Part shown: positions 1,774 through 63,372 of the stretch, one piece after another | How positions within the stretch are numbered: the stretch's first letter is position 1 | Layout of the letters: each line of letters starts with the position of its first letter | NCBI GenBank assembly: GCA_964387675.1 | Contig: CAYLWL010000001.1 | Location: forward strand, 1,099 to 65,098 | Direction: 5' to 3' | DNA length: 64,000 nucleotides | Source: an uncultured Candidatus Saccharibacteria bacterium | GTDB taxonomy: Bacteria; Patescibacteriota; Minisyncoccia; UBA6257; 2-01-FULL-56-20 | Translations under genes and position numbers: made by a program | Notes under the pieces: generated by a model | Seen by the model: the letters and a program-made list of their open reading frames with translations, nothing else | Database searches by the model: none | Told to the model about the DNA's origin: nothing

Positions 1774-2967
1774 ATGCGCATAGCAATTTTTTCAGACGTG
1801 TTTTATCCGGAACTGTCCGGAGTGTCGGACTCCGTCGTCTCTCTTTCAAAAGAGCTCGCCAAACAAGGCCACTTTATAAACTTTTACGTTCCGAGATATT
1901 CTCCGGAGGACTACAAGAAAGTCGGTGTGCCGGAAAAAGAACCCGACTTCGGCCAGAATATAAAAATCGTCCGCTTTTCTTCCATCCACATAAGCGCCGG
2001 CACCGGACAAGGGCGCGGTGTGATACCTTCTTTTTGGAGATGGCGCGAGGTAAAAAAATTCCGGCCGGACGTGATACACGCACAGCTCTTCTTCGGCGTG
2101 GGGCTTGAAGCCCTCATCGCCTCGCGAAGGATCGGAGTTCCTCTCATCGGCACGAACCACACCGCCGTCAAAGAATTTCTCCGCTACTCGCCCGTGAGGT
2201 CGGAAAGAACGGATCGTTGGATCCTTCAATATGTAAACTGGTACTACGGCAAATGTGTTCTCACAACCGCGCCGTCACAATCGGTGATTGACGAAATGGA
2301 GCGATACGGATTCAAAGGAAAAAGCGCCGTGCTTTCAAATCCAATTGATACGAACGTTTTCCGCCCTGCCGGCAATAAAACGGCGCTCAAGAAAAAATAC
2401 GGCTTGTCCGATTTCTGCCTGATGTACGCCGGCAGATTAGCGCCGGAGAAAAACGTGGACGTAATAATAAAGGCCTTGGCGCTCGCAAAAAAATCTATTC
2501 CCGAAGCACAACTTGCGATCGCCGGCACCGGCACCGAAGAGCAAAACCTTAAACACCTTGCCGGTTCTCTGGGCGTAGAAAAGTCCATAAAGTTTTTGGG
2601 ATTTCTCGACCACGCAAAACTTGCCGAGGCCTACAACGCCTCGGAGGCATTCGTTATGATGAGCACATCGGAAACCCAGGGCCTCGTAATGATGCAGGCA
2701 ATGGCTTGTGGCATTCCGGTGATAGGAGCGCGAGCAAGAGCGCTCCCGGAGTATATCAATACAGAAAACGGGATTTTGGTGGAACCGGATGATCACAAAA
2801 CGCTCGCCGAGAAAATAGTTTTTCTTCTTACCAACGATAATGTAAGAAAAAAACTTGGCGCGGGAGCGCGGGAATCGGTTCAGAAGTTTTCAGCGCCGGC
2901 TGTCGCCAAAGAATGGGAGCAAATTTACGAAAGGGCGATTGCGGACTACAATAGAAGTAATCGCTAA
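1774..2967 (+). CDS. Glycosyltransferase family 4
   Basis: 397 aa. N-terminal MRIAIFSDVFYPELSGV, and a C-terminal GT4 core (E..G..MMQAMACGIPVIG). Confidence 0.75.
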   Translation: MRIAIFSDVFYPELSGVSDSVVSLSKELAKQGHFINFYVPRYSPEDYKKVGVPEKEPDFGQNIKIVRFSSIHISAGTGQGRGVIPSFWRWREVKKFRPDVIHAQLFFGVGLEALIASRRIGVPLIGTNHTAVKEFLRYSPVRSERTDRWILQYVNWYYGKCVLTTAPSQSVIDEMERYGFKGKSAVLSNPIDTNVFRPAGNKTALKKKYGLSDFCLMYAGRLAPEKNVDVIIKALALAKKSIPEAQLAIAGTGTEEQNLKHLAGSLGVEKSIKFLGFLDHAKLAEAYNASEAFVMMSTSETQGLVMMQAMACGIPVIGARARALPEYINTENGILVEPDDHKTLAEKIVFLLTNDNVRKKLGAGARESVQKFSAPAVAKEWEQIYERAIADYNRSNR

Positions 2968-3059
2968 TAACGCGAATAACACGGGGTAATAATGCGAATA
3001 CAACAGGAAATTAAATTCGCGTTATTAAAATAAAAATTAGCATTATTCGCGATTACTCC
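2968..3059. repeat. Intergenic repeat family L1, copy A, abutting the GT2 start codon
   Basis: About 90 bp with internal inverted repeats (taataacgcgaataa ... ttattcgcattatta). It is about 85% identical to the reverse complement of 63270-63372. It ends in cgcgattactccATG. Confidence 0.75.
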
Positions 3060-3956
3060 ATGAAACTAAGCTTCGTCATCCCCGCCTACAATGAGGAGCG
3101 CCATATTGGTCTGTGTCTTGATTCTATTTTTAAAGAACTGCGCGGCACCTCGTACGATGTGGAGGTTATTGTCGTCAACAACGCCTCGACGGATCGAACG
3201 CGCGAGATCGCGGCGCGGTACAAGGAAGCAAGAATCGTTGACGAACCTCGAAAGGGCCTCGTCTGGGCCCGCCGCGCGGGTTTTTTGGCTTCAACCGGTG
3301 ATTTGATTGCCAACATTGACGCCGACACGATACTGCCGTCCGGCTGGCTCAAGAAAGCATTTGACGAGTTCGGTGAAAACCAGAAGCTTATTGCCCTGAG
3401 CGGACCGTACATTCTTTACGATTTGCCGCCGACGATAAACTTTTTCGTGAAAACTTTTTTCTTCCCCATTTCTTTTTTGGGATATATGGTCAACCGATTC
3501 ATATTACGGGGCGGATCGATGGTGCTGGGAGGCAACTACGTCATAAGAAAATGGGCGCTTCAAAAAATAGGCGGTTACAACACCGAAATCGGATTCTACG
3601 GCGAGGACGCGGACATCTCCCGGCGCGCGGCCAAGCTGGGACCGGTGAAGTTCACGTATAAATTTCCGATCTACACCTCCGGCCGGCGCATCGCGAAAGA
3701 GGGCGCTTTTACCATGGGGGTGAGATACGGCGCGAACTATCTTTCCATGATGATTTTCCAAAGACCGAAGACCAAAACGTATGTAGACGTGAGGATTGAA
3801 AACGGCGGAGAGAAGCTAAAGTATGAACCGGAAAATAAATCGAAGGAATGGACGATTGCCTCGATTACGATTATTATTCTCTTTGCGATCATCGCGGGGC
3901 TGGGATTCGGAGCGTATCGGCTTGGCATCGTGATCGCGCGGCTCTTGTTCCTTTGA
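3060..3956 (+). CDS. Glycosyltransferase family 2
   Basis: N-terminus LSFVIPAYNEERHIGLCLDS...VIVVNNASTDRT, with a C-terminal transmembrane helix. Its stop overlaps the next start as TGATG. Confidence 0.7.
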   Translation: MKLSFVIPAYNEERHIGLCLDSIFKELRGTSYDVEVIVVNNASTDRTREIAARYKEARIVDEPRKGLVWARRAGFLASTGDLIANIDADTILPSGWLKKAFDEFGENQKLIALSGPYILYDLPPTINFFVKTFFFPISFLGYMVNRFILRGGSMVLGGNYVIRKWALQKIGGYNTEIGFYGEDADISRRAAKLGPVKFTYKFPIYTSGRRIAKEGAFTMGVRYGANYLSMMIFQRPKTKTYVDVRIENGGEKLKYEPENKSKEWTIASITIIILFAIIAGLGFGAYRLGIVIARLLFL

Positions 3957-5293: not shown

Positions 5294-6210
5294 AAATACT
5301 TATAACGGGCGGCGCCGGCTTCATTGCTTCACACGTTGCCGATGCCTATATAAAATCGGGACATAAGGTTGTCGTTGTGGACAATCTCTTAACCGGCTTC
5401 AGAAAAAATGTGAATCCAGGGGCGAAGTTTTATAAAGCCGATATTCAGAACCTCCGGGTGATGGAAAAAATATTCAAAAAGGAACGGCCGGAGGTCGTGA
5501 ACCATCACGCCGCGATAGCCGAAGTGGTAAAATCCCTCCGCAACCCGATCCCCACGATGGAGACGAACGTTATCGGAACCACAAATTTGCTTGTTGCTTT
5601 CGGAAAATACGCGCGCGGTAAAAAGAAAAGGTTTCTTTTTTCGTCTACCGGAGGGGCGATTTACGGCGAACCGAAAAAGATCCCGGCCGACGAAAACACC
5701 CCCGCCGTTCCCCTTTCTCCGTATGGCCTCTCAAAACTGCTCGGCGAGGAAATCATAAAGTTCTACGCCCGCCAGTACGGCTTCGAATATCTCATATTCA
5801 GGTATCCGAACGTCTACGGCCCGAGGCAAAATCCGAAAGGCGAAGCCGGAGTCATCGCCATTTTCGGCTGGCTGATGAAGAACGGGAAAAAGCCGACGAT
5901 TTTCGGCGACGGCACGAAAGCCCGCGATTATATGCACGTGGGAGACATCGTGCGGGGAAATGTGGCGGCTCTCCGCAGAGGCAAAAACGAAATCGTAAAT
6001 CTTGGCTGGGGCAAGAAAGTGACTGATCGGATGATTTTCGACGCGATTGCCAAAAATGTCGGCTTCGAGGGCGGTCCTCGCTATGCCCCCTACCGGAAAG
6101 GAGAAGTGTATCAAATCGCGATAGACGCAAGAAAGGCGAAAAGAATCCTCGGCTGGAAACCGAAAATCACATTTACGGAAGGAATCAAACGAACGGTCGC
6201 GTCGTTATAG
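5290..6210 (+). CDS. NAD-dependent sugar epimerase/dehydratase (GalE-like)
   Basis: MKILITGGAGFIASHVADAY Rossmann motif. SDR active-site Y..xK (SPYGLSK). ATGA overlap with the upstream gene. Confidence 0.7.
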   Translation: MKILITGGAGFIASHVADAYIKSGHKVVVVDNLLTGFRKNVNPGAKFYKADIQNLRVMEKIFKKERPEVVNHHAAIAEVVKSLRNPIPTMETNVIGTTNLLVAFGKYARGKKKRFLFSSTGGAIYGEPKKIPADENTPAVPLSPYGLSKLLGEEIIKFYARQYGFEYLIFRYPNVYGPRQNPKGEAGVIAIFGWLMKNGKKPTIFGDGTKARDYMHVGDIVRGNVAALRRGKNEIVNLGWGKKVTDRMIFDAIAKNVGFEGGPRYAPYRKGEVYQIAIDARKAKRILGWKPKITFTEGIKRTVASL

Positions 6211-12224: not shown

Positions 12225-13244
12225 TTACGCGAAGTTTGTTTGGTGGTCGGCGTTATACAGAACTTCGGCGCCGGATTGCACAAACTTGACCGGTATTTCC
12301 CGGAACTCCCGGAGATTGTTGTCTTTGGCAATTTTCGTGACGGCATCTCGCACCGCCGCTTTTTTATCCGGCGAAGCAAAGAACATCACGCAACCGCCGC
12401 CGCCGGCGCCCAGTACTTTTCCGCCCCAAGCACCGGCCGACATCCCGGCGTCATATAAGGTATCGATTGCGGAATTCGACATATTCGACGCCAACATTTT
12501 TTTTCTCGCCCACCCTTGATGGAGCATGCGCCCCAGCCCCTCAAACTCGCCGGCCGAAAGCTTTGCTTTGAACTCGGGCACCGAAGCGGCCATTTCTTTG
12601 AGCGTCTCGAATTTTTTGTCAATATTGCTCTTTTGCTCGGCAAGAACGCTTGAGGCGATCCTGGTAAGTCCCGTAAAGAAAAGTAAAATACGATCCTCGA
12701 GGCCAAGCCGCTTTTTATAATCAAGAAGCACCGGCTCAACGCCGACCGAATGGTCGGGGTTGAACTTGAAAACGTTAAAGCCGCCGAACGACGCGGCGTA
12801 TTGATCCTGCTTACCGATCGGCTCGCCCACTAAATCTATTTCCAGGCGGCTCGCCTGCTCGGCCGCTTCGGTTTTATCGATTTTTTTTCCGTTAAAAGCA
12901 TGGAGTCCCTTCACGAGAGCAACCGAGAAGCTGGAAGACGAACCAAGTCCGGTTTTCGCCGGAAGCGACGCGAACGAAGCAATCTCGATATTCTTGTTGA
13001 TGCCGAGGTCGGTGAGCGCCGCCCTGATGCGGGTGTGCTGAAGCTCGCTCGGGTGGCCGACGGTTTCCGAAACGGAATACCGCGCCGAAATTTTATCGAT
13101 GAGCGGGGTACGGTTAATAACCACGTACACAAACTTGTCGATGGCCGTCGAGATAACACTACCGGGGCTTTTCTTATAAAAATCCGGCAGGTCTGTCCCC
13201 CCGCCGACAAAGCTGATGCGTAATGGCGCGCGGACTACGATCAT
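12225..13244 (-). CDS. GHMP-family sugar kinase (HddA-like D-glycero-D-manno-heptose 7-phosphate kinase)
   Basis: MIVVRAPLRISFVGGGTDLPDFY at the N-terminus. GHMP ATP-binding loop PAKTGLGSSSSFSVAL. Confidence 0.65.
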   Translation of the reverse strand: MIVVRAPLRISFVGGGTDLPDFYKKSPGSVISTAIDKFVYVVINRTPLIDKISARYSVSETVGHPSELQHTRIRAALTDLGINKNIEIASFASLPAKTGLGSSSSFSVALVKGLHAFNGKKIDKTEAAEQASRLEIDLVGEPIGKQDQYAASFGGFNVFKFNPDHSVGVEPVLLDYKKRLGLEDRILLFFTGLTRIASSVLAEQKSNIDKKFETLKEMAASVPEFKAKLSAGEFEGLGRMLHQGWARKKMLASNMSNSAIDTLYDAGMSAGAWGGKVLGAGGGGCVMFFASPDKKAAVRDAVTKIAKDNNLREFREIPVKFVQSGAEVLYNADHQTNFA

Positions 13245-13373
13245 CCCTCACCTTTCGAGGATTGCGCGGCGGCAATCTCGTTGATTTAATTTCCACGACT
13301 TTTTATTGCGGAATATCATTGTTTTGTTGGAGGCCTCGCCCAGAAGACATTAATCCTCGATAAGGTGAGGGAT
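13245..13373. repeat. MITE-like repeat family L2, copy A, with 21-bp terminal inverted repeats, abutting the hddA-like start codon
   Basis: atccctcacctttcgaggatt ... aatcctcgataaggtgagggat. It is about 95% identical to 23051-23179 in inverted orientation. Confidence 0.8.
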
Positions 13374-13461
13374 CATAAGAAGACTATAGGGCAAACCCTG
13401 TGCTTAGTCAATAAAGTATAAGAGTTTAATTCGAATCGAAAAGAATTTATTTAAACCTCGG

Positions 13462-14403
13462 TCAGCCGAATAGTTTCTTTTTCAACTTATGCGTATTTCC
13501 GTGGCCAAGGAGTCCACGATATGAGGCGGAGGTTTCGTCAGACAGATTTTCACCCAATCGTCTGGCCATCCGCCGCCTTGTCGCGGCCCTCAAAGTCCGG
13601 TGATACGGAAAGTGAACCCAACCGAGGAAGTCGACGCCGGAGGCGAACGTTTTGATAGAAACTTTGTCAGGATGAAGTGATATGTGTAGCCGCGTCTCGA
13701 GAAAACCTGAAGTTTTCGGAATAATGCTTTCCAAGTATCGCTTATCCTCGTGTACAATCACAAAATCGTCGGCATAGCGAACGCAATGGCGAATCTTCAG
13801 CTTCCGCTTCAAGAACTGGTCGAACTCGTTCATGTAAATATTCACGAGGAGCTGGCTCGTGAGGTTGCCAAGCGGCAGGCCGACGCCCGGCTTGTCCTTT
13901 GTATGGAAGCTGTCAATGGTTTCGGCCAAGAGCCATAAAATATCGTTATCTTCGATGTACCGCTTCAAAATGTCTTTTAATGTTCCATGATCGATGCTCG
14001 CGAAAAATTTCCTGATGTCGCATTTAAGGATCCATGCCGTCCGCGCGTGATTGCGCGAGACGACCCTCGTATATTTCTTGAAACGATCCATCGCGCGGTA
14101 CGTGCCTTTGTCGTAGCGACAGGAATACGAATCGAAGATGAATTTCTTATCGAAATAGGGATACAAAATCCGGTAAATCGCGTGGTGCAGCAAGCGGTCG
14201 CGTACTTCGGCCTTGTGGATTTCACGCGGCTTCGGGTCGTTGATTTTGAATGGCCGGTACGGACCGTGCCGGTATGTTTTGTCCGATAATTCCCGGTGAA
14301 GCGCGAGGATATTGCCCGTAAGATTCAAAGAAAACAATGCAACATCTTTGCGTTTTCGCTTGCCGCGTAAAAATTCGCGCCACGCGGAAAGCAGATTTTC
14401 CAC
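13462..14403 (-). CDS. Diversity-generating retroelement (DGR) reverse transcriptase
   Basis: 313 aa. RT motifs 1-7, including YADDFVIV. Carries the DGR-specific motif GLPLGNLTSQLLVNIY where other RTs have QGxxxSP. The N-terminus LSAWREFLRGKRKRKDVALF is typical of Brt-like RTs. Confidence 0.85.
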   Translation of the reverse strand: MENLLSAWREFLRGKRKRKDVALFSLNLTGNILALHRELSDKTYRHGPYRPFKINDPKPREIHKAEVRDRLLHHAIYRILYPYFDKKFIFDSYSCRYDKGTYRAMDRFKKYTRVVSRNHARTAWILKCDIRKFFASIDHGTLKDILKRYIEDNDILWLLAETIDSFHTKDKPGVGLPLGNLTSQLLVNIYMNEFDQFLKRKLKIRHCVRYADDFVIVHEDKRYLESIIPKTSGFLETRLHISLHPDKVSIKTFASGVDFLGWVHFPYHRTLRAATRRRMARRLGENLSDETSASYRGLLGHGNTHKLKKKLFG

Positions 14404-14445
14404 GGAAATGATATCATGGAAATCATGACGCGGCCAGGCGATTCG

Positions 14446-14471
14446 TCTCTCTCTCTCTCTCTCTCTCTCTC
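14446..14471. repeat. (TC)13 dinucleotide microsatellite
   Basis: tctctctctctctctctctctctctc lies in the divergent intergenic region between the RT and the avd-like gene. Confidence 0.9.
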
Positions 14472-14510
14472 GATAAGGCCTCGATTCTCGCGAGAATCAA
14501 AGAGGGGTAT

Positions 14511-14834
14511 TTGTTTTGGATGAATCTTGTGCCGCATATTGCTAAGGGTACCCGATATACGCTCGGTGCGCGAATTGAAAATAAGTTTCTTGATCTTTTG
14601 GAACTGTCCTACGCCGCGTACTTCACGGAAAAAGAAAAGAAAGTGGAGAAAATTACGGAATGCGTCTTCATAACAGACATACTCAAGTTTTTGGTCTCCG
14701 TTGCGTGGGAAGGCGAGGTTATCTCCGACCACCAATGCGAAGGCATCGCGGTAAAACTGGAGGAGATCGGCAAAATGCTCGGCGGCTGGAAAAAGAGTTT
14801 GGGCAATCCCGAAAAGAAAAACCGCGCTCTCTGA
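14511..14834 (+). CDS. Avd-like four-helix-bundle accessory protein, on the opposite strand to the RT and target
   Basis: 107 aa, helical. The C-terminus LEEIGKMLGGWKKSL resembles the Avd C-terminus AEVGRILGSWIARV. It is adjacent to the TR. Confidence 0.5.
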   Translation: MFWMNLVPHIAKGTRYTLGARIENKFLDLLELSYAAYFTEKEKKVEKITECVFITDILKFLVSVAWEGEVISDHQCEGIAVKLEEIGKMLGGWKKSLGNPEKKNRAL

Positions 14835-14855
14835 ACGCGGAAAGAACGAACTTTC

Positions 14856-14982
14856 GGAGGCGGAAGACAAACTCATTGTCGGGATTCCACGTATTGCCCG
14901 GATTCGTCCAATTGTCGTTCAGCCACAGACCGTCTTCGTTTCGTTCCAAGTTGAAGACGTTCGGGTTGCCGTCACGATCGGT
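14856..14982 (-). repeat. DGR template repeat (TR)
   Basis: 127 bp that aligns with 15333-15459. About 18 mismatches, every one at a plus-strand T in TR, which is a sense-strand A. Encodes the Asn-rich sequence GLWLNDNWTNPGNTWNPDNEFVFRLRK. Confidence 0.85.
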
Positions 14983-15307
14983 TCTGTGCGCCGCGCCATC
15001 CGCGCCACTGCCCGTCTAAATAAAGAGACTGGGCTGTATTTTATATGGGAGCATGACTCCACCAGCGCAGCGCACCAAGTTGTTTCTTTTTTGTTGACAA
15101 CTATGCGAATCCTCTCCGTCAAGCCGTAACCGGACGGACTCTCAATATGCATATGCCGGAAGGGTCTCGAAAAACCGCCTGGCCCGAGCGAGGTCGAAGG
15201 CTAGCCGTCCGATATAACCCATCTGATTTAATAATAGCAAAAAATTACGGCGGGATACAAAAAGAATCAAAGGGTTAAAGCGCCAAAGTTTCAGAAACGC
15301 AAAGATT

Positions 15308-17212
15308 CTAAGTTTTCAAGTTTTTCAACTTGCGGAGGCGGAAGACAAACTCATCGTCGGGATCCCACGTATCGCCCGGACCCGTCCAAAGGCCGTACAG
15401 CCACAGACCGCCTCCGTACCGAGCCAAGTAGAAGACGTCCGGGTTGCCGTCACGATCGGCTATTTGTTTCATGCCAATGCGGAACCATTTATTTAGGGGT
15501 TGGTTTGCATATTTGAGCCGATAATGCGGTCCGGTTTCGGCTGGACAGAGTTCCAATCCCAATTCTTCGATGCGTTTGTAAACTTCGTCTGTTGTCGGGT
15601 ATTTGTCTTTGGGAAAACCGAGGTCGCCAACTTTGAGGCGGATGAGAATTTCTTCCTCTGATTTTTTGAGGACGGTGAAATCCTTGCTTTTCAACATATC
15701 CATCGCATAGTCCGAGATGTTGATCTTTTTCTCGCGCATTTCATTAATGAGCGTTTTGGCATCTTTACCGCCGATTTCCAGTTGTTCTTTGCGAATTCTG
15801 CCTTCGGGGAAGGAAGTGTAGACGTGTTCGATGCCATATCTCTGGACTTTGTCGAAGATGCCGGGGACGAGGGAGCCGACATAGGCCTTTGTGTCTTCTT
15901 TGATTTCGGATATGTCTCGTGCGATTTGATCTTTTTCGCACTCAAACACTACTGCCATGTCTTCTTCGGGATTTCTTTGAGAGCGGAGCTCCCTGACGCG
16001 GGGATCATTCGTTCCATAACCAAAGCTTTCTATGGGTGCGTTGATTTCGTAAAGAAAAATAAGGTCGTCTTTCGAGAGCGTTGCGCCTGTTCCTGTCTTT
16101 TTCTTGATCGCGGTTAATGTTTCCATATCGCTGGCCTTCTTTTCGTATTTCTGGCCGTCGGGATGAGCCGCAAGTTTTTCCTTGATTACGTTGTTGATAC
16201 GGGGATCGATGTGCTCGTCTTCGGCCACACCACGGACTTCGGAGATGATTCCACCTGCGCTTACGATCACCGCGCGCGGCACGGTTGGTTTGCCTTCTTT
16301 GTCAAGCGAGTAAAAAATTTCAAGATCGTTTCCTTGAAGATATCTTCGTGCCATAGACTCGCCTCGCAAGCACCAGCCAGTGCCATAAGGAGCGATCGAT
16401 TCTACAAGACGCATTGGGTCGGATCCTTGGGGATATGCTATCCACGTTCCCTCGGTAACCTTGAGTAGTTCTTCGGGTATGGGCTTGAACTCTTCGACGG
16501 CCAAGGCGTAGAGCTTGGCAAAGTTCTTTTGTTTGAGGAGTTGAAGAAAGCTTTGCTTGGTTGCTTCTTCTATGTCGTAGCCGAATTTGACGGGTTCGCC
16601 CCTCTCTTGCCGCTCAAACGATTCAAGCACGATGGCCAGGGCCTCGCGATTGAGGTCGGGAAAGGGAGCAATGGCCCCGCCGGTTCTCTCAGAAAAAGCT
16701 TTCTTTTTCTTGTCGTATCTACCCATACGCAAGATGCTGCGGAAAGCGAAGTATTTGAGATAGTCAGGATATTTGGCGTCATCTGACGCTAGATAATCGA
16801 CCCATTCGTCAAGAGAGTTCTTTTGGTCGGTAGTAATTGTTTCCGCGAGTTCTTTCCGTATATCGCCCGGTATTTCATCAAGGGGGCGGCCTTCTTCTTC
16901 GTGCCTCTTTTTTACGGATTCGAAGTAAGCTTCGGGAATGTCCTCTGGTTTGATGACGAACTGGTCATAGAGGGAGCGCTTCAGCGTCTCGAGATTTCTC
17001 TCTCCTCTTTCGAAACCTTCGTGACCCGCCAGTCGTGCTGGATGAATTACTGATTTTAGTCGGTCGAGATAATTTTGTATGCGGGCGTCTGCTCCTTCTA
17101 CTGTATCGAGCGTGAGCTTTTTCCCTGTCCGTTTTTCGGTACGCTTTGCAGCCCGTTCTACTTCGTGGCTTTTATGCAAGCCATATTTTTCTCTTAAGAA
17201 GCTCTTTTCCAT
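15308..17212 (-). CDS. DGR variable (target) protein with the VR at its C-terminus
   Basis: 634 aa. C-terminus ...RYGGGLWLYGLWTGPGDTWDPDDEFVFRLRKLKNLKT corresponds to the TR-encoded sequence. The N-terminal roughly 560 aa is uncharacterised. Confidence 0.8.
   Translation of the reverse strand: MEKSFLREKYGLHKSHEVERAAKRTEKRTGKKLTLDTVEGADARIQNYLDRLKSVIHPARLAGHEGFERGERNLETLKRSLYDQFVIKPEDIPEAYFESVKKRHEEEGRPLDEIPGDIRKELAETITTDQKNSLDEWVDYLASDDAKYPDYLKYFAFRSILRMGRYDKKKKAFSERTGGAIAPFPDLNREALAIVLESFERQERGEPVKFGYDIEEATKQSFLQLLKQKNFAKLYALAVEEFKPIPEELLKVTEGTWIAYPQGSDPMRLVESIAPYGTGWCLRGESMARRYLQGNDLEIFYSLDKEGKPTVPRAVIVSAGGIISEVRGVAEDEHIDPRINNVIKEKLAAHPDGQKYEKKASDMETLTAIKKKTGTGATLSKDDLIFLYEINAPIESFGYGTNDPRVRELRSQRNPEEDMAVVFECEKDQIARDISEIKEDTKAYVGSLVPGIFDKVQRYGIEHVYTSFPEGRIRKEQLEIGGKDAKTLINEMREKKINISDYAMDMLKSKDFTVLKKSEEEILIRLKVGDLGFPKDKYPTTDEVYKRIEELGLELCPAETGPHYRLKYANQPLNKWFRIGMKQIADRDGNPDVFYLARYGGGLWLYGLWTGPGDTWDPDDEFVFRLRKLKNLKT
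15333..15459 (-). repeat. DGR variable repeat (VR) with the IMH-like GC-rich 3' end
   Basis: It differs from the TR only where TR has A: TR Asn, Glu and Asp codons become Tyr, Leu, Gly, Asp and Ala. The shared 3' end GTCTTCCGCCTCC is identical to TR. Confidence 0.85.
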
Positions 17213-22994: not shown

Positions 22995-23050
22995 AATCCT
23001 AAGCACTCAATCCTAAACAAATTCCAAGATTGTGGCTTGTTTAGAATATG

Positions 23051-23179
23051 GATCCCTCACCTTTCGAGGATTAATATCTTCTGGGCGAGGCCTTCAACAA
23101 AACAATGATATTCCGCAATAAAAAGTCGTGGAAATTAGATCAACGAGGTTGCCGCCGCGCAATCCTCGAAAGGTGAGAG
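23051..23179. repeat. MITE-like repeat family L2, copy B, abutting the rodZ-like start codon
   Basis: Terminal inverted repeats gatccctcacctttcgaggatt ... aatcctcgaaaggtgagag, followed immediately by ATG 23180. Confidence 0.8.
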
Positions 23180-23830
23180 ATGGACGATCAAAACTTTTTT
23201 TCTTTTCTCAATGGTCGCATCAAGGATAAGGGGCTCAACCTCAAAAAGATTTCCGAGCTCTCGGGGATCTCTTTGAAACACCTGGAGGCACTCGGCCGAG
23301 AAGATTTTTCGGCGATGCCGCCGGCGCCGTATTTTCGGGGATATCTCATAAAACTCGGGGAAATATTGGATTTCGATCCCGATCCGTGGTGGTCAAAAAT
23401 AAAAAGCGCCGGCGCCGTGAGAAATTCGGGGGAGGAAGACGCTCCTCCCCGGAATCGGTTCATCAAGCCCCAGTTCCTGAAATTCATCTGGGCCGCGATC
23501 GTCGGGCTTGTTGTTTTGCTGTACATCTCGCTCCAATCTTCAAGAATCCTTGGCAAGCCAAACATTCAAGTGGTGTATCCCGAGACAAATCCGGCCGTTG
23601 CGGCGAGCAACACCATAACGCTCAAGGGGAGCGTTTCCAACTGGAACGAACTCACGCTGAACGGCGAGCCGATATCGGTTAGTCGCGACGGGGAGTGGGA
23701 AAAAATCGTGCTTCTGGAGCCGGGCCTCAACTCCCTCGAACTAAAAGCTAAAAAGTTCCTGGGGGGCGAGATCAAGGTGATAGAGCAGATCATATACCAA
23801 CCCACCAGTACTATTGGGGCTTCTTCATAA
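23180..23830 (+). CDS. RodZ-like helix-turn-helix membrane protein
   Basis: N-terminal HTH (LKKISELSGISLKHLEALGRED), a single transmembrane helix, and a C-terminal beta domain. Confidence 0.5.
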   Translation: MDDQNFFSFLNGRIKDKGLNLKKISELSGISLKHLEALGREDFSAMPPAPYFRGYLIKLGEILDFDPDPWWSKIKSAGAVRNSGEEDAPPRNRFIKPQFLKFIWAAIVGLVVLLYISLQSSRILGKPNIQVVYPETNPAVAASNTITLKGSVSNWNELTLNGEPISVSRDGEWEKIVLLEPGLNSLELKAKKFLGGEIKVIEQIIYQPTSTIGASS

Positions 23831-23842
23831 CCACTGTTTATG

Positions 23843-23998
23843 ATTGCGCCCCGCGCAGTCCTTTCGGAAACAGCCTCGATTTGCTCCAGCGGCAAATCGG
23901 ACTTCGCTCTCGGCGAAAAACCGAGCACATAACGCCTATGTGCTCGGACCAATCTTTTTCGCCTCCGAGATATTCCTCAAGAACAGCGCGAGGCTCAC
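23843..23998. repeat. Structured repeat R1, copy 1 (inverted relative to 29557-29712)
   Basis: Its reverse complement aligns with 29557-29712 (for example ctcggtttttcgccgagagcga.gcccgatttgccgctggagcaaatcgagg). It contains an 11-bp hairpin ccgagcacata-acgcc-tatgtgctcgg. Confidence 0.75.
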
Positions 23999-29556: not shown

Positions 29557-29712
29557 GCTCCGCCGCAGTGTTCTTGAGGAACATCTCGGAGGCGAAAAAG
29601 ATCGGTCCGAGCATCGAATGCGTTCGATCTCGGTTTTTCGCCGAGAGCGAGGCCCGATTTGCCGCTGGAGCAAATCGAGGCCGTTTCCGAAAGAATACTG
29701 CGGCGGAGCGAA
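29557..29712. repeat. Structured repeat R1, copy 2
   Basis: A 13-bp closing stem gctccgccgcagt/actgcggcggagc encloses about 125 nt. An internal hairpin ccgagcatcgaa-tgcg-ttcgatctcgg covaries with copy 1. Confidence 0.75.
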
Positions 29713-43261: not shown

Positions 43262-43476
43262 TGTTGTATATTATATTCTTTAATTTTAGCATAATACCAG
43301 TAAGAAGTCAAGTCCTCGATTTGTGCCTCTTAGGCCTAAATATAGATATAAAGTAACATAAAAAATACTAAATTAAAAGAAGTGCCCGGGCTGGGAGTCG
43401 AGTTGGACCGTGAAGTCCTTCTCTGTCCCAGCGCCGGGCTGGTTGCTCCGCGTTGCGCGGAGCGCTGACTGGAGGA

Positions 43477-44841
43477 TCAGCTCAGGCTGACGAGCCCGAG
43501 CTCGACGGCGCGGGCGACCGCCTTCGGCCGGTCGTACCGCTTCGCCACTTCGTGGGCGGAGACGATCGACTTGGCCATCTCCTGGCCACCGTCGGCCAGG
43601 TTCCTGATTTCCGCGTACATCGCGGCGAGGCGCTCGTCGGTGAGCCCCTCGATGAAGGTCAGGATCTCCATCGACTTCGTCCGACCGTTGCCGGCCACCG
43701 CGGGCTTCGTGGCGGGCGCCACGGTCTTCGTCGTGGGTGCCGCAACCGGCGTGGCCGCCGTCTTGACCTTCGGAGTGATGGACTTGACCTCAACGGCGGG
43801 AGCCGCCGGGGTCAGCTTCGCGAGCTCGGTCTCGAGCTGGGAGATCTCAGCCTTGGACGCCTTGAGCGCGTCGCCATCCTCGGCTTCCAACGCCTTGGCC
43901 TTGCGGGCCTTGGCCTCGGTGAGCCGGATATTGAGCGCCACGCGCGGGTCGGGCCTGCTGGCCTCCGCGAGCTTCGCGAGCTCGGCCTCGATCTGGGAGA
44001 TCTCGGCCTTGGACGCCTTGAGCGCGTCGCCATCCTCGGCTTCCAACGCCTTGGCCTTGCGGGCCTTGGCCTCGGTGAGCCGAGAGTTGAGCGTCGCCTT
44101 CTGGTCGGCGGGCTTGGCGGGCGCCTTGCCCTGCTGGCTCTTCGGCGCGGCCGTCGCCTCGAACTCCTTGCGGAGCTCGGCGCCGACCGTTACGTTCTTC
44201 CTTTCGAACCAGCCGAGGAGCTTCTCGAAGCTCTGCCTGTCCCACGTCCTCGTCTTCGAGGCTTTCGCCTTCGAATCCGAGTCCGCGAGCCGCTGCTTCA
44301 AGCGCGCCAAGAACCCCGTCGCCGCCTCGCCGCTGGCCTGCTCTTTCGGTTCCGTCGCGCCGACCGGCTTGCGGAACTTTTTGAGCCCCGCACGCAGGAG
44401 CGCCTCGACGCTCTCCTGGTTGAACCGATCGATCGGATGGCCCGACGTCCTGCCGAGCTTCTTCGCCGCCCGGAGAAGCTCCAGGCGACCCTTGCCCGAC
44501 AGGTAGAGAATAACGTAGTTGCCCACGTTCTTCTCCTCGTCACCGACCATGTCGATGAAGGAGTCTGTCAGGTACAACATGTCGAGCTCCCCCTGAAGGG
44601 GACCCCTGTCCTCCTCCGGGATGGCCGCCATGCTCTTGCTGAGCGCGTCGACTGCGCCCCACATGGCCTTCTCTCTCGCCGAGAGCTCCTCCGATTGAGG
44701 AACTCCTTCCGGTCCGCGCGCGGCCCTGATCGCCAAAAGCTCGACAGCGATTCTGCCTGCCTCCGCCACGATGTCTCCGTGCTTCTCCACCATCGCCTGA
44801 TGCTCGTTCGCCATGACTGTCCTCCAAATGCCCCACGCCAT
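43477..44841 (-). CDS. Coiled-coil protein with an internal 40-aa tandem duplication, inside the high-GC island
   Basis: LNSRLTEAKARKAKALEAEDGDALKASKAEISQIEAELAKL occurs twice. The nucleotide repeat is at about 43830-43910 and 43950-44030. The plus-strand overlapping ORF is an R/G/L-rich artefact. Confidence 0.45.
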   Translation of the reverse strand: MAWGIWRTVMANEHQAMVEKHGDIVAEAGRIAVELLAIRAARGPEGVPQSEELSAREKAMWGAVDALSKSMAAIPEEDRGPLQGELDMLYLTDSFIDMVGDEEKNVGNYVILYLSGKGRLELLRAAKKLGRTSGHPIDRFNQESVEALLRAGLKKFRKPVGATEPKEQASGEAATGFLARLKQRLADSDSKAKASKTRTWDRQSFEKLLGWFERKNVTVGAELRKEFEATAAPKSQQGKAPAKPADQKATLNSRLTEAKARKAKALEAEDGDALKASKAEISQIEAELAKLAEASRPDPRVALNIRLTEAKARKAKALEAEDGDALKASKAEISQLETELAKLTPAAPAVEVKSITPKVKTAATPVAAPTTKTVAPATKPAVAGNGRTKSMEILTFIEGLTDERLAAMYAEIRNLADGGQEMAKSIVSAHEVAKRYDRPKAVARAVELGLVSLS

Positions 44842-44942
44842 GCGCGGAGCTTTTCACGTGTTTTCGATTCGGGGCCTTACCCCGACACAGGCGGCCCCGA
44901 AGGAGTCACCTGATTATTGCTGACTCAATACTAGCAAACTAT

Positions 44943-54790: not shown

Positions 54791-54826
54791 TGGTTTTTGC
54801 CAAGGTCATTTTTCGGAAGCTACGAC

Positions 54827-54980
54827 GTATATCTTTTTGGAGCCGCGGTTCGTCCCGCTCCAGCGGCGGTACGCCCGCTACTTCCCTGCCTGCCGGCAGG
54901 CAGGTCGGTGGTTCGACTCCGACCGCGGTCGGAGACCAAGCTCGAATCATCTCCGAAAGCTTCCAAAAAGATATACGTCG
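54827..54980. repeat. Element of about 150 bp flanked by 24-bp inverted repeats, with a tRNA-like T-arm remnant
   Basis: gctacgacgtatatctttttggag ... ctccaaaaagatatacgtcgtagc. The interior contains GGTTCGACTCC, but no valid cloverleaf can be folded. Confidence 0.5.
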
Positions 54981-54987
54981 TAGCTCG

Positions 54988-56273: not shown

Positions 56274-56403
56274 TGTCGTGGATATTCCTCGCGCAGCGCG
56301 CGAGGAATAATGTTACGCCGTTCCGTCTTGCGCAAGGCAACGTGCCAAGCGAAAAGACGGAAGGGCCTCTTTTTTTTGATTTTGTTTTAGTAACGGCATT
56401 TTG

Positions 56404-56487
56404 TGGGCGAGGTGGGATTTGAACCCACACTTCCTTTCGGAAACACGGTTCTAAGCCGTGCGCCTATACCAGTTCGGCTACTCGCCC
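56404..56487 (-). tRNA. tRNA-Leu (anticodon TAG) with a long variable arm
   Basis: The reverse complement reads GGGCGAGTAGCCGAACTGGTATAGGCGCACGGCTTAGAACCGTG...GTGGGTTCAAATCCCACCTCGCCCA. Confidence 0.8.
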
Positions 56488-57114
56488 GTAAAATCTTTGC
56501 GTCACCGCGAACTTTCGGGATAGCTTACAAACTGATTGATTATAGTACATAAACGAAAATAATTTTAGAGAGTCGGCTTTCGCGTAAACCAGTACGCCGA
56601 TGCCGTCTTTTTTCGATTCGATCCAACCTCCTTCTATTTTCGTGATATTCTGAATTTCCGACTTAACCCACTCTAAAAACCTTGGACTGGCGGAGCACAA
56701 TCTAATTCTTAGCTGCGGATATTTACTTTCGGGATGAGAAAAAAATCCGATGCTCCCATCTCCGTCAATACAACCACGGAAAAAATCAGCGAAGTATTCT
56801 TTCGGAATTTTTAACTCCGTAAGTGTCTTGGATTTTGCCGGTTTCAGACCTATGGTGGCCAGAAAATCGTAAAAATCCCTATCGCCAAATTGCACAACAA
56901 AATATTTCTTTTCCTTTGACCCACCCCTACTCTTGCGACCTATTCTGTTTGACAATCCCAGGCATAGCTTAAAAATGAGAACCAGTTCCTCGTCTTTGCT
57001 TGTAAAGTTAATATGTCTTCCGTCTATGGACAAATTCCCGTCGGTGGTTATTAGTCCTATGGCATAAGCGAATCTCGAACTCCACACAATTTTTACCTTT
57101 CTCATCCTGTGCAC
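56464..57114 (-). CDS. LAGLIDADG homing endonuclease (two-motif, single-chain)
   Basis: AYAIGLITTDGNLSIDG and FFRGCIDGDGSIG motifs. The 3' end of the ORF overlaps the 5' 24 nt of tRNA-Leu. Confidence 0.7.
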   Translation of the reverse strand: MHRMRKVKIVWSSRFAYAIGLITTDGNLSIDGRHINFTSKDEELVLIFKLCLGLSNRIGRKSRGGSKEKKYFVVQFGDRDFYDFLATIGLKPAKSKTLTELKIPKEYFADFFRGCIDGDGSIGFFSHPESKYPQLRIRLCSASPRFLEWVKSEIQNITKIEGGWIESKKDGIGVLVYAKADSLKLFSFMYYNQSVCKLSRKFAVTQRFYGRVAELV

Positions 57115-61940: not shown

Positions 61941-63269
61941 TCATTTACTCGTCATCAACTGGCTCGCTTGGTCTTGCGCCTGCCGTAACGCGTGTTCCGA
62001 ATCCGCTTTTCCGCTTAACACCCTCGTTATCGCGTCATTTATTATTCTATCAATAATCTCGTCGTCCGCCTCGTGCCACGACTGGGCGGTAAGCGCCTGC
62101 CTCACGAAAACTCCCATATCCGGATCGTCCAGTTTTTGGGCGATGAGAGATCGGAGGGCGGGCGGGTGGCCGGTTGCGTCAAGATATAATTTCGAAGCGT
62201 CGGGGTTTGTCGTCGCGAAAAGCGCGAAATCCCATGCCCAACCGATGGATTTGCTCTGTTTTGAAACCGCGAGGCCCCAGTAACGAGGGTAGTTCACGCC
62301 GGTCTCCGACCCCGTGGGTTGGAGCATCGGAGCAACCGCGACATTCAGGAATGGGCTCTTGCCCCCGATCTTGTCAATCGCCGATTTGTAATTGAACACA
62401 ATAGCCGTCTTGCCGTTCGCGAAACTGTCGATCGAATTCTGTTGGGCATCATTCCAGGTGTACCGGGGCGAACCGGCATTCGCAAATTGAAGATAAAAGT
62501 TGAAAGCGGCCAGTCCCGGATTTTTGTTGTCGTCCCGCGCCGAAGCAAAAGTGGCCGACGAAAAGTTGTTGGTTGTCATCTGCGTGCCGTTTTGAAGCAT
62601 CAAGAGAACCAGAAGATCGACTCCCGCATCAACGCTTTGCTCGGAGCCGCCGATCGCCGCGGCCGCTCTCACGATTTGCCCGCTCTCATTCAACGTCTTG
62701 AGCCGCGGCACGATAGAGAGAAATTCATCCCATGTTTTCGGCGGAAAAACGATCGCGGCTTGGTTGAAGAGGTCTTTATTGTAGATCGTCGCCATCGTGT
62801 CCACGTACAGCGGGAGAGCGAAAATCTGCTTTGCCTCGCCTGTGGCGGGGCTCCCGGAAGCCGACACGAAGTCCTGTTCCGCAACCGCGGGGAAAAAATT
62901 TCTGAATCCCGCAAGCCCCAACTGCGCCGGCAAAATCGGGTACAATTTATTCATGTGCTTCGGCAGGGCCCTATTTCTGACATAGAGCACGTCTGGTCCG
63001 GCGCCTTCGGCCAATGCGTCAACCAGAACGCCATCGTACTTCGCGGGATCAATCTCTTTATAGGTTACTTGAACGTTTGGTCTGAACGCCTTGTAGCTCT
63101 GAATAACTTTTTCTATGGCCGCGGAGCTCTCGGTGCCCCAAAAATTCAAAGACACCTGCTCCCTAACCCCGCTGTCGCGGCGAACGTTAAGGCCAACAAC
63201 AACGAAGATAAGGATGAAGACAACGGCGATGCCCGCGAGTATGAAGATTTGTTTCTGGGAAAGTTTCAT
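61941..63269 (-). CDS. ABC transporter substrate-binding protein (sugar-type, SBP family 1)
   Basis: N-terminal transmembrane/signal anchor. 442 aa with an extracellular solute-binding pattern. Confidence 0.6.
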   Translation of the reverse strand: MKLSQKQIFILAGIAVVFILIFVVVGLNVRRDSGVREQVSLNFWGTESSAAIEKVIQSYKAFRPNVQVTYKEIDPAKYDGVLVDALAEGAGPDVLYVRNRALPKHMNKLYPILPAQLGLAGFRNFFPAVAEQDFVSASGSPATGEAKQIFALPLYVDTMATIYNKDLFNQAAIVFPPKTWDEFLSIVPRLKTLNESGQIVRAAAAIGGSEQSVDAGVDLLVLLMLQNGTQMTTNNFSSATFASARDDNKNPGLAAFNFYLQFANAGSPRYTWNDAQQNSIDSFANGKTAIVFNYKSAIDKIGGKSPFLNVAVAPMLQPTGSETGVNYPRYWGLAVSKQSKSIGWAWDFALFATTNPDASKLYLDATGHPPALRSLIAQKLDDPDMGVFVRQALTAQSWHEADDEIIDRIINDAITRVLSGKADSEHALRQAQDQASQLMTSK

Positions 63270-63372
63270 GGAGTATTCGCGAATAACGCTAATTTTTATT
63301 TAATAATGCGAATTTGGTTTCCGGTTCCATTCGCGTTATTACCCGGTATTATTCGCGTTATTAGCGATTACT
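63270..63372. repeat. Intergenic repeat family L1, copy B (inverted relative to copy A), abutting the SBP start codon
   Basis: ggagtattcgcgaataacgctaatttttatttaataatgcgaat...attcgcgttattagcgattactc is about 85% identical to the reverse complement of 2968-3059. Confidence 0.75.

Follow-up and report, generated by a model that had tools for sequence, protein, structure and literature searches.

The 64-kb window analyzed here, that is, the whole stretch of 64,000 nucleotides, contains two non-coding copies of an element of about 127 bp that are 95% identical, and both are discrete insertions that duplicated 4-5 bp of target and fall precisely on the start codons of an hddA-like and a rodZ-like gene. 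With a probability that we put at roughly 0.7, they belong to an undescribed family of non-autonomous elements that resemble MITEs (miniature transposable elements with inverted repeats) in the Candidate Phyla Radiation (CPR, or Patescibacteria), characterized by start-codon insertion and by a presumed leader and stem-opening role. Based on the comparison of genomes, mobility is well supported by empty sites, target duplications and dispersed members. The kind of element is ordinary, while its choice of site looks non-random.

A repeat search placed the arms of similarity at 13242-13360 and 23064-23182 (96% identity over 119 nt), and the copies differ by five substitutions and one indel over approximately 130 nt. 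The refined cores are located at 13245-13371 and 23054-23179 (Table 1), and neither copy contains a long open reading frame (ORF). In a MAFFT alignment that included 45 nt of flank per side, similarity begins and ends within 1-2 nt of the inverted repeats, and the flanks are unalike; seen from their own genes, the two copies point the same way. The 21-mer AATCCTCGAAAGGTGAGGGAT is present at 13243-13263 (minus strand), 23052-23072 (minus strand) and, with one mismatch, 23161-23181 (plus strand), with 0.01 chance matches expected, while the fourth arm, at 13352-13373 in copy 1, is one base longer (CCTTATCGAGG). The gene-side arm, ending in ...AAAGGTGAG(G/A)G, abuts the ATG in both copies with no gap. 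An earlier note, made from the letters of this window alone, had described two copies about 95% identical with 21-bp terminal inverted repeats, each exactly against a start codon, as a MITE-like element; its coordinates agree with ours to within 2 nt, and the empty sites, direct repeats and further members described below show that the element is discrete and mobile. The target-site duplications that it proposed to look for are ATGAT at the first copy and ATGGA at the second, and the extended flank homology that it named as a refutation is absent, with no similarity beyond the element ends. Neither fuzzy repeat matching nor an inverted-repeat scan found a third copy of the family in the window.

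Orthologous sites without the element were identified for both copies. L001 is a Logan contig from the same sample series, with an identical HddA and downstream DNA that is 99.96% identical over 11 kb, and L027 is a related genome with proteins approximately 69% identical and the synteny of the window. At hddA, both are empty: the gene is preceded by TTGACT-17-TATAGT-cctacc-ATGATCGTAG in L001 and by TTGACG-17-TATAGT-N9-ATGATCGTAGTCC in L027, and the window reads TTGACT-17-TATAGT, cttctt-ATGAT, element, ATGATCGTAGTCC. The rodZ-like site, between ftsK and the gene, is likewise empty in L027 (ftsK-TGA-ccataaat-ATGACG) and in another relative, L030 (TAA-caagtaat-ATGGGA), and the window reads ...tagaat-ATGGA-T(element)-ATGGACGAT. 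Removal of the element and one copy of the repeat restores the empty sites when the window flanks are joined. Conversely, the gmhA site is filled in L027 and empty in the window, and the ruvA site filled in one further genome is empty in L031. The N-termini of the HddA-like and RodZ-like proteins align with their homologues from residue 1. Together with the flanking direct repeats and with members of the family elsewhere, both at further loci and in further genomes, these empty sites identify the copies as insertions. Each of the independent Logan short-read contigs of this population that carry hddA, the rodZ-like gene and ftsK (L002-L005, L038 and L039) stops within the element, 30 nt short of the first copy-specific single-nucleotide polymorphism, which is how a k=31 assembler behaves at a repeat; in practice, the element breaks assemblies of these MAGs. 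Look-ups with exact proteins to extend the sequence past the window gave the same contig end or short Logan contigs that likewise stop in the element. The window is 100% identical to JACQKV010000018.1 (GCA_016204365.1) over the 11.7 kb compared, and its RodZ-like protein is 100% identical to a protein that NCBI names from a Candidatus Liptonbacteria MAG (metagenome-assembled genome).

Using the exact arm 18-mer, we scanned 185,579 species genomes and the Joint Genome Institute (JGI) metagenomes. The scan returned single matches in approximately the number expected by chance, plus three loci with a second, inverted arm 20-94 nt away (L014, L015 and L025); a relaxed search added a diverged member in L027, so that four further family members are present in other CPR sequences. 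The L027 member is located at the hddA/gmhA junction (hddA-TAA-ac-ATGAA-T(CCCCGCACC...GGTGGGGG)-ATGAAAGATTAC, the last being the gmhA start), for which the window has the empty site TAA-gcaagc-ATGGAAGGC. The L015 member is located between gmd and fcl, with TACAAT 9 nt before the old ATG; the L025 member exactly fills the gap from the rpsU stop codon to the yqeY ATG; and the L014 member, in a Candidatus Yanofskybacteria genome, is a short form inserted in frame within ruvA. Five of the six members are flanked by direct repeats: ATGAT and ATGGA in the window, ATGAA in L027, ATGGA in L015 and GTCAA in L014. Across the six, 96.7% of the arm cells are paired, and three pairs are changed on both sides, i.e., they co-vary. 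The cores measure 126-136 nt in the long forms and 62 nt in the short form, and the interiors are unrelated, except that the L027 interior is weakly similar to the window copies in the same orientation (z 3.9-4.7, about 4-5). Small size, lack of coding content, terminal inverted repeats, target duplications and empty orthologous sites are features that the family shares with prokaryotic MITEs.

These members also bear on a segmental duplication, or a gene conversion, that carried one upstream region onto another gene. Such an event would be compatible with a window in which only two near-identical copies, 9.7 kb apart, are visible; however, homology stops at the inverted repeats on both sides, the same ends recur at four other places, in other genomes, with different interiors, and each copy has its own direct repeat. 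With sharp borders and members elsewhere, we rejected this explanation, which is scarcely credible.

The ruvA locus of the short form is itself variable. The RuvA proteins of many Parcubacteria carry a hypervariable in-frame insert after GKV (lengths from 192 to 239 aa); at the L014 locus (5389-6054) the insert contains the short form of the element, and at the L032 locus (1765-2436) the site has a different perfect palindrome, CCCCGTTAGAGGT...ACCTCTAACGGGG. This insert site may be a hotspot for palindromic elements similar to the Rickettsia palindromic elements (RPEs).

Insertion at a start codon, with the ATG regenerated beside a Shine-Dalgarno (SD)-like terminus, is what appears to distinguish the family, and on six insertions the association looks non-random. 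A start codon abuts each of the five non-coding insertions and, in four of them, forms the first bases of the duplicated target; three of the five came from a search that was blind to gene position. As a null, we assumed that the element uses only ATGRA/ATGAT words and that only non-coding insertions survive. Of such words, the window contains 11 where ORFs start and 44 within spacers (p = 0.20 per event), and this generous null gives P(>=4/5) = 0.007 and P(5/5) = 3e-4. Both element ends read ...AAAGGTGAGGG outward; since the ends are inverted repeats, whichever way round the element is inserted, its SD-like AGGTGA ends up 3 nt ahead of the regenerated ATG. All five genes at these insertions (hddA, gmhA, fcl, yqeY and the rodZ-like gene) look intact and conserved. 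The association may reflect either survivorship or a target preference, such as one for the region of leaderless genes where transcription starts or the open complex forms, two causes that are inseparable here. If selection is responsible, a gene would be stranded by an element that landed between its -10 box and the ATG, but would keep an SD-like sequence in place after a landing at ATGNN. For target preference, the open complex is one conceivable cue, since the ATG of a leaderless gene is also its transcription start. In a 90%-coding leaderless genome, the start codon may be among the few sites where an insertion keeps the gene expressed.

The promoter layout of the window suggests that the host genome is largely leaderless or near-leaderless. 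In a crude set of 55 window ORFs, -10-like hexamers located 4-10 nt before the start were found 23 times, against an expectation of 5.8, and were most frequent at 6 and 9 nt; TAGAAT-7-ATG, TTGACG-17-TATATT-6-ATG and TAAAAT-6-ATG are examples of such starts. Hexamers of this type at 6 or 9 nt, with no SD, precede, e.g., the starts at 1077, 6712, 17212, 20898, 32961 and 57114. A literature search found no published account of leaderless initiation in CPR. On this background, the element would convert a leaderless start into a structured leader with the SD-like AGGTGA. AGGUGA would pair without a mismatch to UCACCU of the 16S tail in its canonical form, GAUCACCUCCUUA, which may not be that of the host, and its spacing to the ATG, counted from the GGAGG register, is about 6 nt.

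As RNA, both copies are predicted to fold into a long hairpin with the terminal stem of 21 bp at its base (-51.6 and -49.6 kcal/mol; z about -4.1 for each). The SD/AUG region has an unpaired probability of 0.08-0.18 in the full leader, and keeping the first 33 nt unpaired raises it to 0.28-0.52. The earlier note had anticipated both that the element end supplies an SD-like sequence and that the ends would pair and occlude it; AGGTGA stands beside the ATG, and the occlusion is seen in the predicted folds. As for function, it had offered a mobile promoter/ribosome-binding-site cassette or a shared cis-regulatory leader. For the cassette, mobility and the SD-like end held, and the promoter did not: we found no convincing gene-directed promoter inside the element, the sole match (9/12, at threshold) points away from the gene, and the strong promoter-like site of copy 1 is located just outside the element. 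A promoter cassette was therefore rejected.

The shared leader did not stand. A vertically inherited cis-regulatory RNA common to both genes, whether riboswitch-like or a translational operator bound by protein, would account for the stable hairpin that sequesters the SD/AUG, for the common orientation relative to the gene and for the co-variation of the arms. Nevertheless, the hddA and rodZ-like orthologues of a near-identical strain and of relatives lack the element, which largely refutes it; other members precede unrelated genes or sit inside ruvA, the interiors are unrelated, and direct repeats flank the copies. Rfam covariance models gave only five tRNAs in the window at gathering thresholds and nothing at E <= 1 on 13150-13500. 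We rejected a riboswitch or conserved leader on these grounds, and the explanation as a whole is very unlikely.

Three further features were absent from the earlier note: the second start codon, a duplicate at the element's far end, the 8-codon mini-ORF that results from it, and the leaderless host context. The mini-ORFs start at the old ATG, and their stop codons fall just past the left arm; the four of them have 8, 8, 8 and 9 codons, those in L027 and L015 reading MNPRTFRG* and MDPSPFEDL*, respectively (the window peptides are given in Table 1). In L025, the rpsU stop codon stands at the foot of the stem, where these four have the old ATG. In copy 1, the junction is one base short (ATGAT, not ATGNAT) and the arm is one base longer (CCTTATCGAGG), so that the TAA stays in frame and a bulge results; these compensating indels are a weak hint that the mini-ORF matters.

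Based on the predicted fold, we hypothesize a translational relay via the mini-ORF. The element would be co-transcribed as a new 5′ leader. At hddA, the old ATGNN remains 6 nt after the -10 box, where a leaderless mRNA would begin, and the other copy of the repeat, at the far end of the element, heads the intact gene. The two arms would form the 21-bp stem that buries the SD and AUG. In the route that we prefer, loading or termination of a ribosome at the old AUG would lead to translation of the mini-ORF and thereby open the stem, so that the gene is still translated; the mini-ORF spans exactly the arm complementary to the SD/AUG, and a ribosome there would cover about 15 nt downstream, which are the bases paired with the SD/AUG. 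Alternatively or additionally, RNase III could cleave the 21-bp stem and unmask the SD, as in Correia elements (PMC10969869, PMC2649163). The most complete version would be a MITE family specialized for the first codon of leaderless genes, which inserts at the transcription start/ATG, regenerates the ATG, presents an outward SD at both ends and relays ribosomes through the mini-ORF; we consider it rather improbable.

Several points weigh against a mobile family with a translational role. SD-like motifs are rare before the window genes, and the role proposed for AGGTGA would depend on a generally conserved anti-SD in a genome that seldom uses SD sequences. The predicted stem strongly occludes the SD, so the insertions may be just tolerated or mildly harmful. 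Upstream of the old ATG of copy 2, there is no clear promoter. The length of the target duplication is ambiguous (5 bp, or 2 bp plus AT termini that match the target by chance), and the L025 member has no clear duplication, with AT alone common to both sides. Only two copies are visible in 64 kb, the insertions total six, and the two copies of the window, which first drew attention, are among these six. Concerning a source of transposition, a Pfam search of about 35 window ORFs found no transposase domain, although it did find an XerC/D-like recombinase, a LAGLIDADG protein and a retroelement reverse transcriptase; and scans of genomes, metagenomes and viruses, with exact 17-18-mers only, found no autonomous insertion sequence (IS) with such arms kilobases apart.

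A somewhat unlikely alternative is that the MITE is mobile but functionally inert: the SD-like end and the mini-ORF would be accidents of a purine-rich palindrome, insertions elsewhere would have been purged, and the genes would be expressed despite the hairpin. The scarcity of SD-like motifs and the buried SD just mentioned are in keeping with it, as are the short member within ruvA, which indicates that insertion is not confined to starts, and a P of 0.007 under the generous null, which is not astronomically small. It leaves unaccounted for that AGGTGA lies 3 nt from the regenerated ATG in five of five non-coding insertions, that neutral intergenic ATGRA words outnumber those at start codons 4:1 in the window, that the paired indels of copy 1 hold the mini-ORF stop in frame, and that the five genes look intact and conserved.

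Another group of explanations takes the element not as a transposon but as a site for DNA transactions: a recombination site similar to integron attC, a paired operator for a DNA-binding protein, or a promoter cassette that is mobile. Palindromic ends, a variable interior and a fairly constant 126-136 bp recall attC, the window has the XerC/D-like recombinase gene, and there is the weak promoter-like match inside the element. However, that match is at threshold and faces away from the gene, the neighbors are not cassettes, no integron integrase is present, and the target duplications indicate transposition. An integron attC was rejected, as the ends ATCCCTCACC ... GGTGAGGGAT lack RYYYAAC/GTTRRRY cores, the neighbors are syntenic core genes and the only recombinase is XerC/D-like; the group as a whole is very improbable indeed. 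We also rejected an intrinsic terminator, since there is no U-tract and no gene-directed terminator at the element end, and the stem is followed by the ATG and coding sequence. A viral contig scan with the 17-mer gave no match, a blastn search of plasmids and phages at E <= 10 gave only chance-level matches of 19-36 nt, none at IS ends, and the one open frame of the element, translated, had no match in a database of 5.8 billion proteins.

Table 1. Coordinates of the element copies, their target sites and the neighboring retroelement, as positions of the window.
Feature	Position	Strand	Basis
Element copy 1, core CCCTCACC...GGTGAGGG, 127 nt, reads towards the hddA-like gene	13245-13371	-	Repeat search, alignment
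Copy 1, gene-proximal terminal inverted repeat AATCCTCGAAAGGTGAGGGAT, SD-like AGGTGA 3 nt before ATG	13243-13263	-	Exact 21-mer; pairs with distal arm in minimum free energy fold
Copy 1, gene-distal terminal inverted repeat ATCCCTCACCTTATCGAGGATT, 22 nt, one extra A	13352-13373	-	Alignment
Direct repeat ATGAT, right copy, contains working hddA-like start codon 13242-13244	13240-13244	-	Agrees with L001/L027 empty site ...TATAGT-N6/9-ATGATCGTAG
Direct repeat ATGAT, left copy, old hddA-like start codon, 6 nt downstream of promoter-like -10 box	13372-13376	-	Flank comparison
Mini-ORF from old ATG, copy 1, ATG ATC CCT CAC CTT ATC GAG GAT TAA (MIPHLIED*), spans distal arm	13350-13376	-	Read from sequence
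Promoter-like site TTGACT-17-TATAGT, candidate native hddA promoter outside the element, 6 nt upstream of old ATG	13383-13411	-	10/12 match; same layout before hddA ATG in L001, L027
hddA-like GHMP kinase gene, downstream of copy 1	12225-13244	-	Pfam PF00288, PF08544
Element copy 2, T + core CCCTCACC...GGTGAGAG, 127 nt	23053-23179	+	Repeat search, alignment
Copy 2, gene-distal terminal inverted repeat ATCCCTCACCTTTCGAGGATT	23052-23072	+	21-mer match
Copy 2, gene-proximal terminal inverted repeat AATCCTCGAAAGGTGAGAGAT, 1 mismatch, SD-like AGGTGA	23161-23181	+	21-mer match; fold
Direct repeat ATGGA, left copy, old rodZ-like start codon	23048-23052	+	Upstream TAGAAT/ATG resembles ATAAAT/ATG, AGTAAT/ATG of element-free relatives
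Direct repeat ATGGA, right copy, working rodZ-like start codon	23180-23184	+	Flank comparison
Mini-ORF, copy 2, ATG GAT CCC TCA CCT TTC GAG GAT TAA (MDPSPFED*), spans distal arm	23048-23074	+	Read from sequence
rodZ-like HTH_25 gene, downstream of copy 2	23180-23830	+	Domain search and homologues
Diversity-generating retroelement, reverse transcriptase	13462-14403	-	
Diversity-generating retroelement, bAvd-like gene	14511-14834	+	
Diversity-generating retroelement, template repeat	14849-14988		
Diversity-generating retroelement, variable repeat, at 3′ end of target gene 15308-17212(-)	15327-15466		

Among described elements, the Correia elements of Neisseria are non-coding, approximately 100-155 bp long, with 26-bp terminal inverted repeats; they are mostly found directly upstream of genes, are co-transcribed with them, have a stem cut by RNase III and alter the expression of the neighboring gene (PMC10969869, PMC2649163). 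They are the closest to our family in behavior, with long terminal repeats, an upstream position and, presumably here, co-transcription; no sequence similarity between the arms (ATCCCTCACCTTTCGAGGATT) and the Correia consensus is apparent. Correia elements duplicate TA and act mainly by outward promoters and an integration host factor (IHF) site (PMC10969869). Unlike them, the family has a 4-5-bp duplication that holds the start codon, no outward promoter was found in it, and its outward feature is SD-like. The RPEs are palindromic, mobile elements of a reduced genome that are inserted in frame into genes and translated (PMC10969869). The in-frame short form in the Yanofskybacteria ruvA resembles them; the sequence and the host phylum differ, and five of the six copies here are at gene starts, not inside genes. 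The enterobacterial repetitive intergenic consensus (ERIC) sequences, or intergenic repeat units (IRUs), of Enterobacteria and Yersinia are imperfect palindromes of about 127 bp in mRNAs, where the fate of the transcript depends on their orientation and position (PMC10969869). Their size and palindromic form are similar, whereas ERIC sequences duplicate TA and act on mRNA decay via RNase E. We know of no ERIC sequence on a start codon or as an SD donor. Our family matches none of these three kinds of element in sequence or in target duplication.

In translational coupling, such as that of MS2 coat/replicase and rpmI-rplT, the downstream SD/AUG lies hidden in a long-range stem until a ribosome translating upstream melts it. 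Those systems are evolved operon features, whereas the arrangement proposed here by analogy would arise in one step by transposon insertion. What MITEs are known to contribute includes promoters, sites for IHF and RNase, and peptide segments read in frame. A review from 2024 on what MITEs do in prokaryotes covers promoters, IHF sites, RNase cleavage, gene inactivation, small RNAs and possible terminators or riboswitches, and the terms 'start codon', 'Shine-Dalgarno' and 'ribosome binding' appear nowhere in it (PMC10969869). A literature search found no paper that describes MITEs in CPR/Patescibacteria.

Beside copy 1, the window holds a complete diversity-generating retroelement (13462-17212; Table 1), in which 19 of the 21 mismatches between template and variable repeats are at template adenines. 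The whole cassette and copy 1 are both missing in L001. A link between the element and this retroelement, 90 nt after whose reverse transcriptase gene copy 1 lies, was rejected, as copy 2 and the other members have no such retroelement nearby.

Other repeats were identified in the window. The second MITE-like repeat, of approximately 102 nt, is found at 2956-3067 (plus strand) and 63262-63372 (minus strand), with 22-nt inverted ends AGTAATCGCTAATAACGCGAAT / ATTAGCATTATTCGCGATTACT and copies 86-95% alike; both copies are followed by CCATGAAACT, which is the start of two unrelated genes, a GT2 glycosyltransferase (3060-3956) and a solute-binding protein (61941-63269). This second family is thus also located on start codons, and no flanking duplication was seen. 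The third repeat is an inverted pair of approximately 130 nt (23861-23990 and 29564-29693, 92-95% alike) with 25-nt inverted ends at 29557-29581 and 29685-29709; one copy follows the rodZ-like gene closely on its 3′ side, and the second separates PNPase from a small ORF. Between them lie about 4.4 kb of genes (after recA) missing in L027, and this region also contains the short direct repeats 24052-24096/27959-28003 and 25262-25291/29270-29299. At 54818-54985, a 168-nt segment with perfect 24-nt inverted repeats (AGCTACGACGTATATCTTTTTGGA) adjoins a tRNA-Pro gene, and its interior resembles a tRNA fragment. The ORF at 56464-57114 (minus strand), with a LAGLIDADG_3 domain, ends in, or overlaps, tRNA-Leu (56403-56487) and may be a homing-endonuclease remnant. 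Finally, two tandem 139-nt copies at 43814-44108, 91% alike and spaced 156 nt apart, form an internal protein repeat in the ORF 43453-44913, which has no Pfam match.

If the association with start codons fails, the elements would be one more MITE family, in a phylum without described ones. If it holds genome-wide, it would mean that ultra-compact and largely leaderless genomes can retain mobile DNA that lands where it spares the gene and supplies a replacement initiation signal, and that a gene can pass between leaderless and SD-led initiation in a single event. The annotation of MAGs would also be affected, through assembly breaks, spurious small ORFs and shifted predicted starts. Moreover, if the family is specialized for the first codon of leaderless genes, a single insertion would turn such genes into SD-led, structure-gated ones, and CPR genomes would gain a mobile way to rewire translation initiation.

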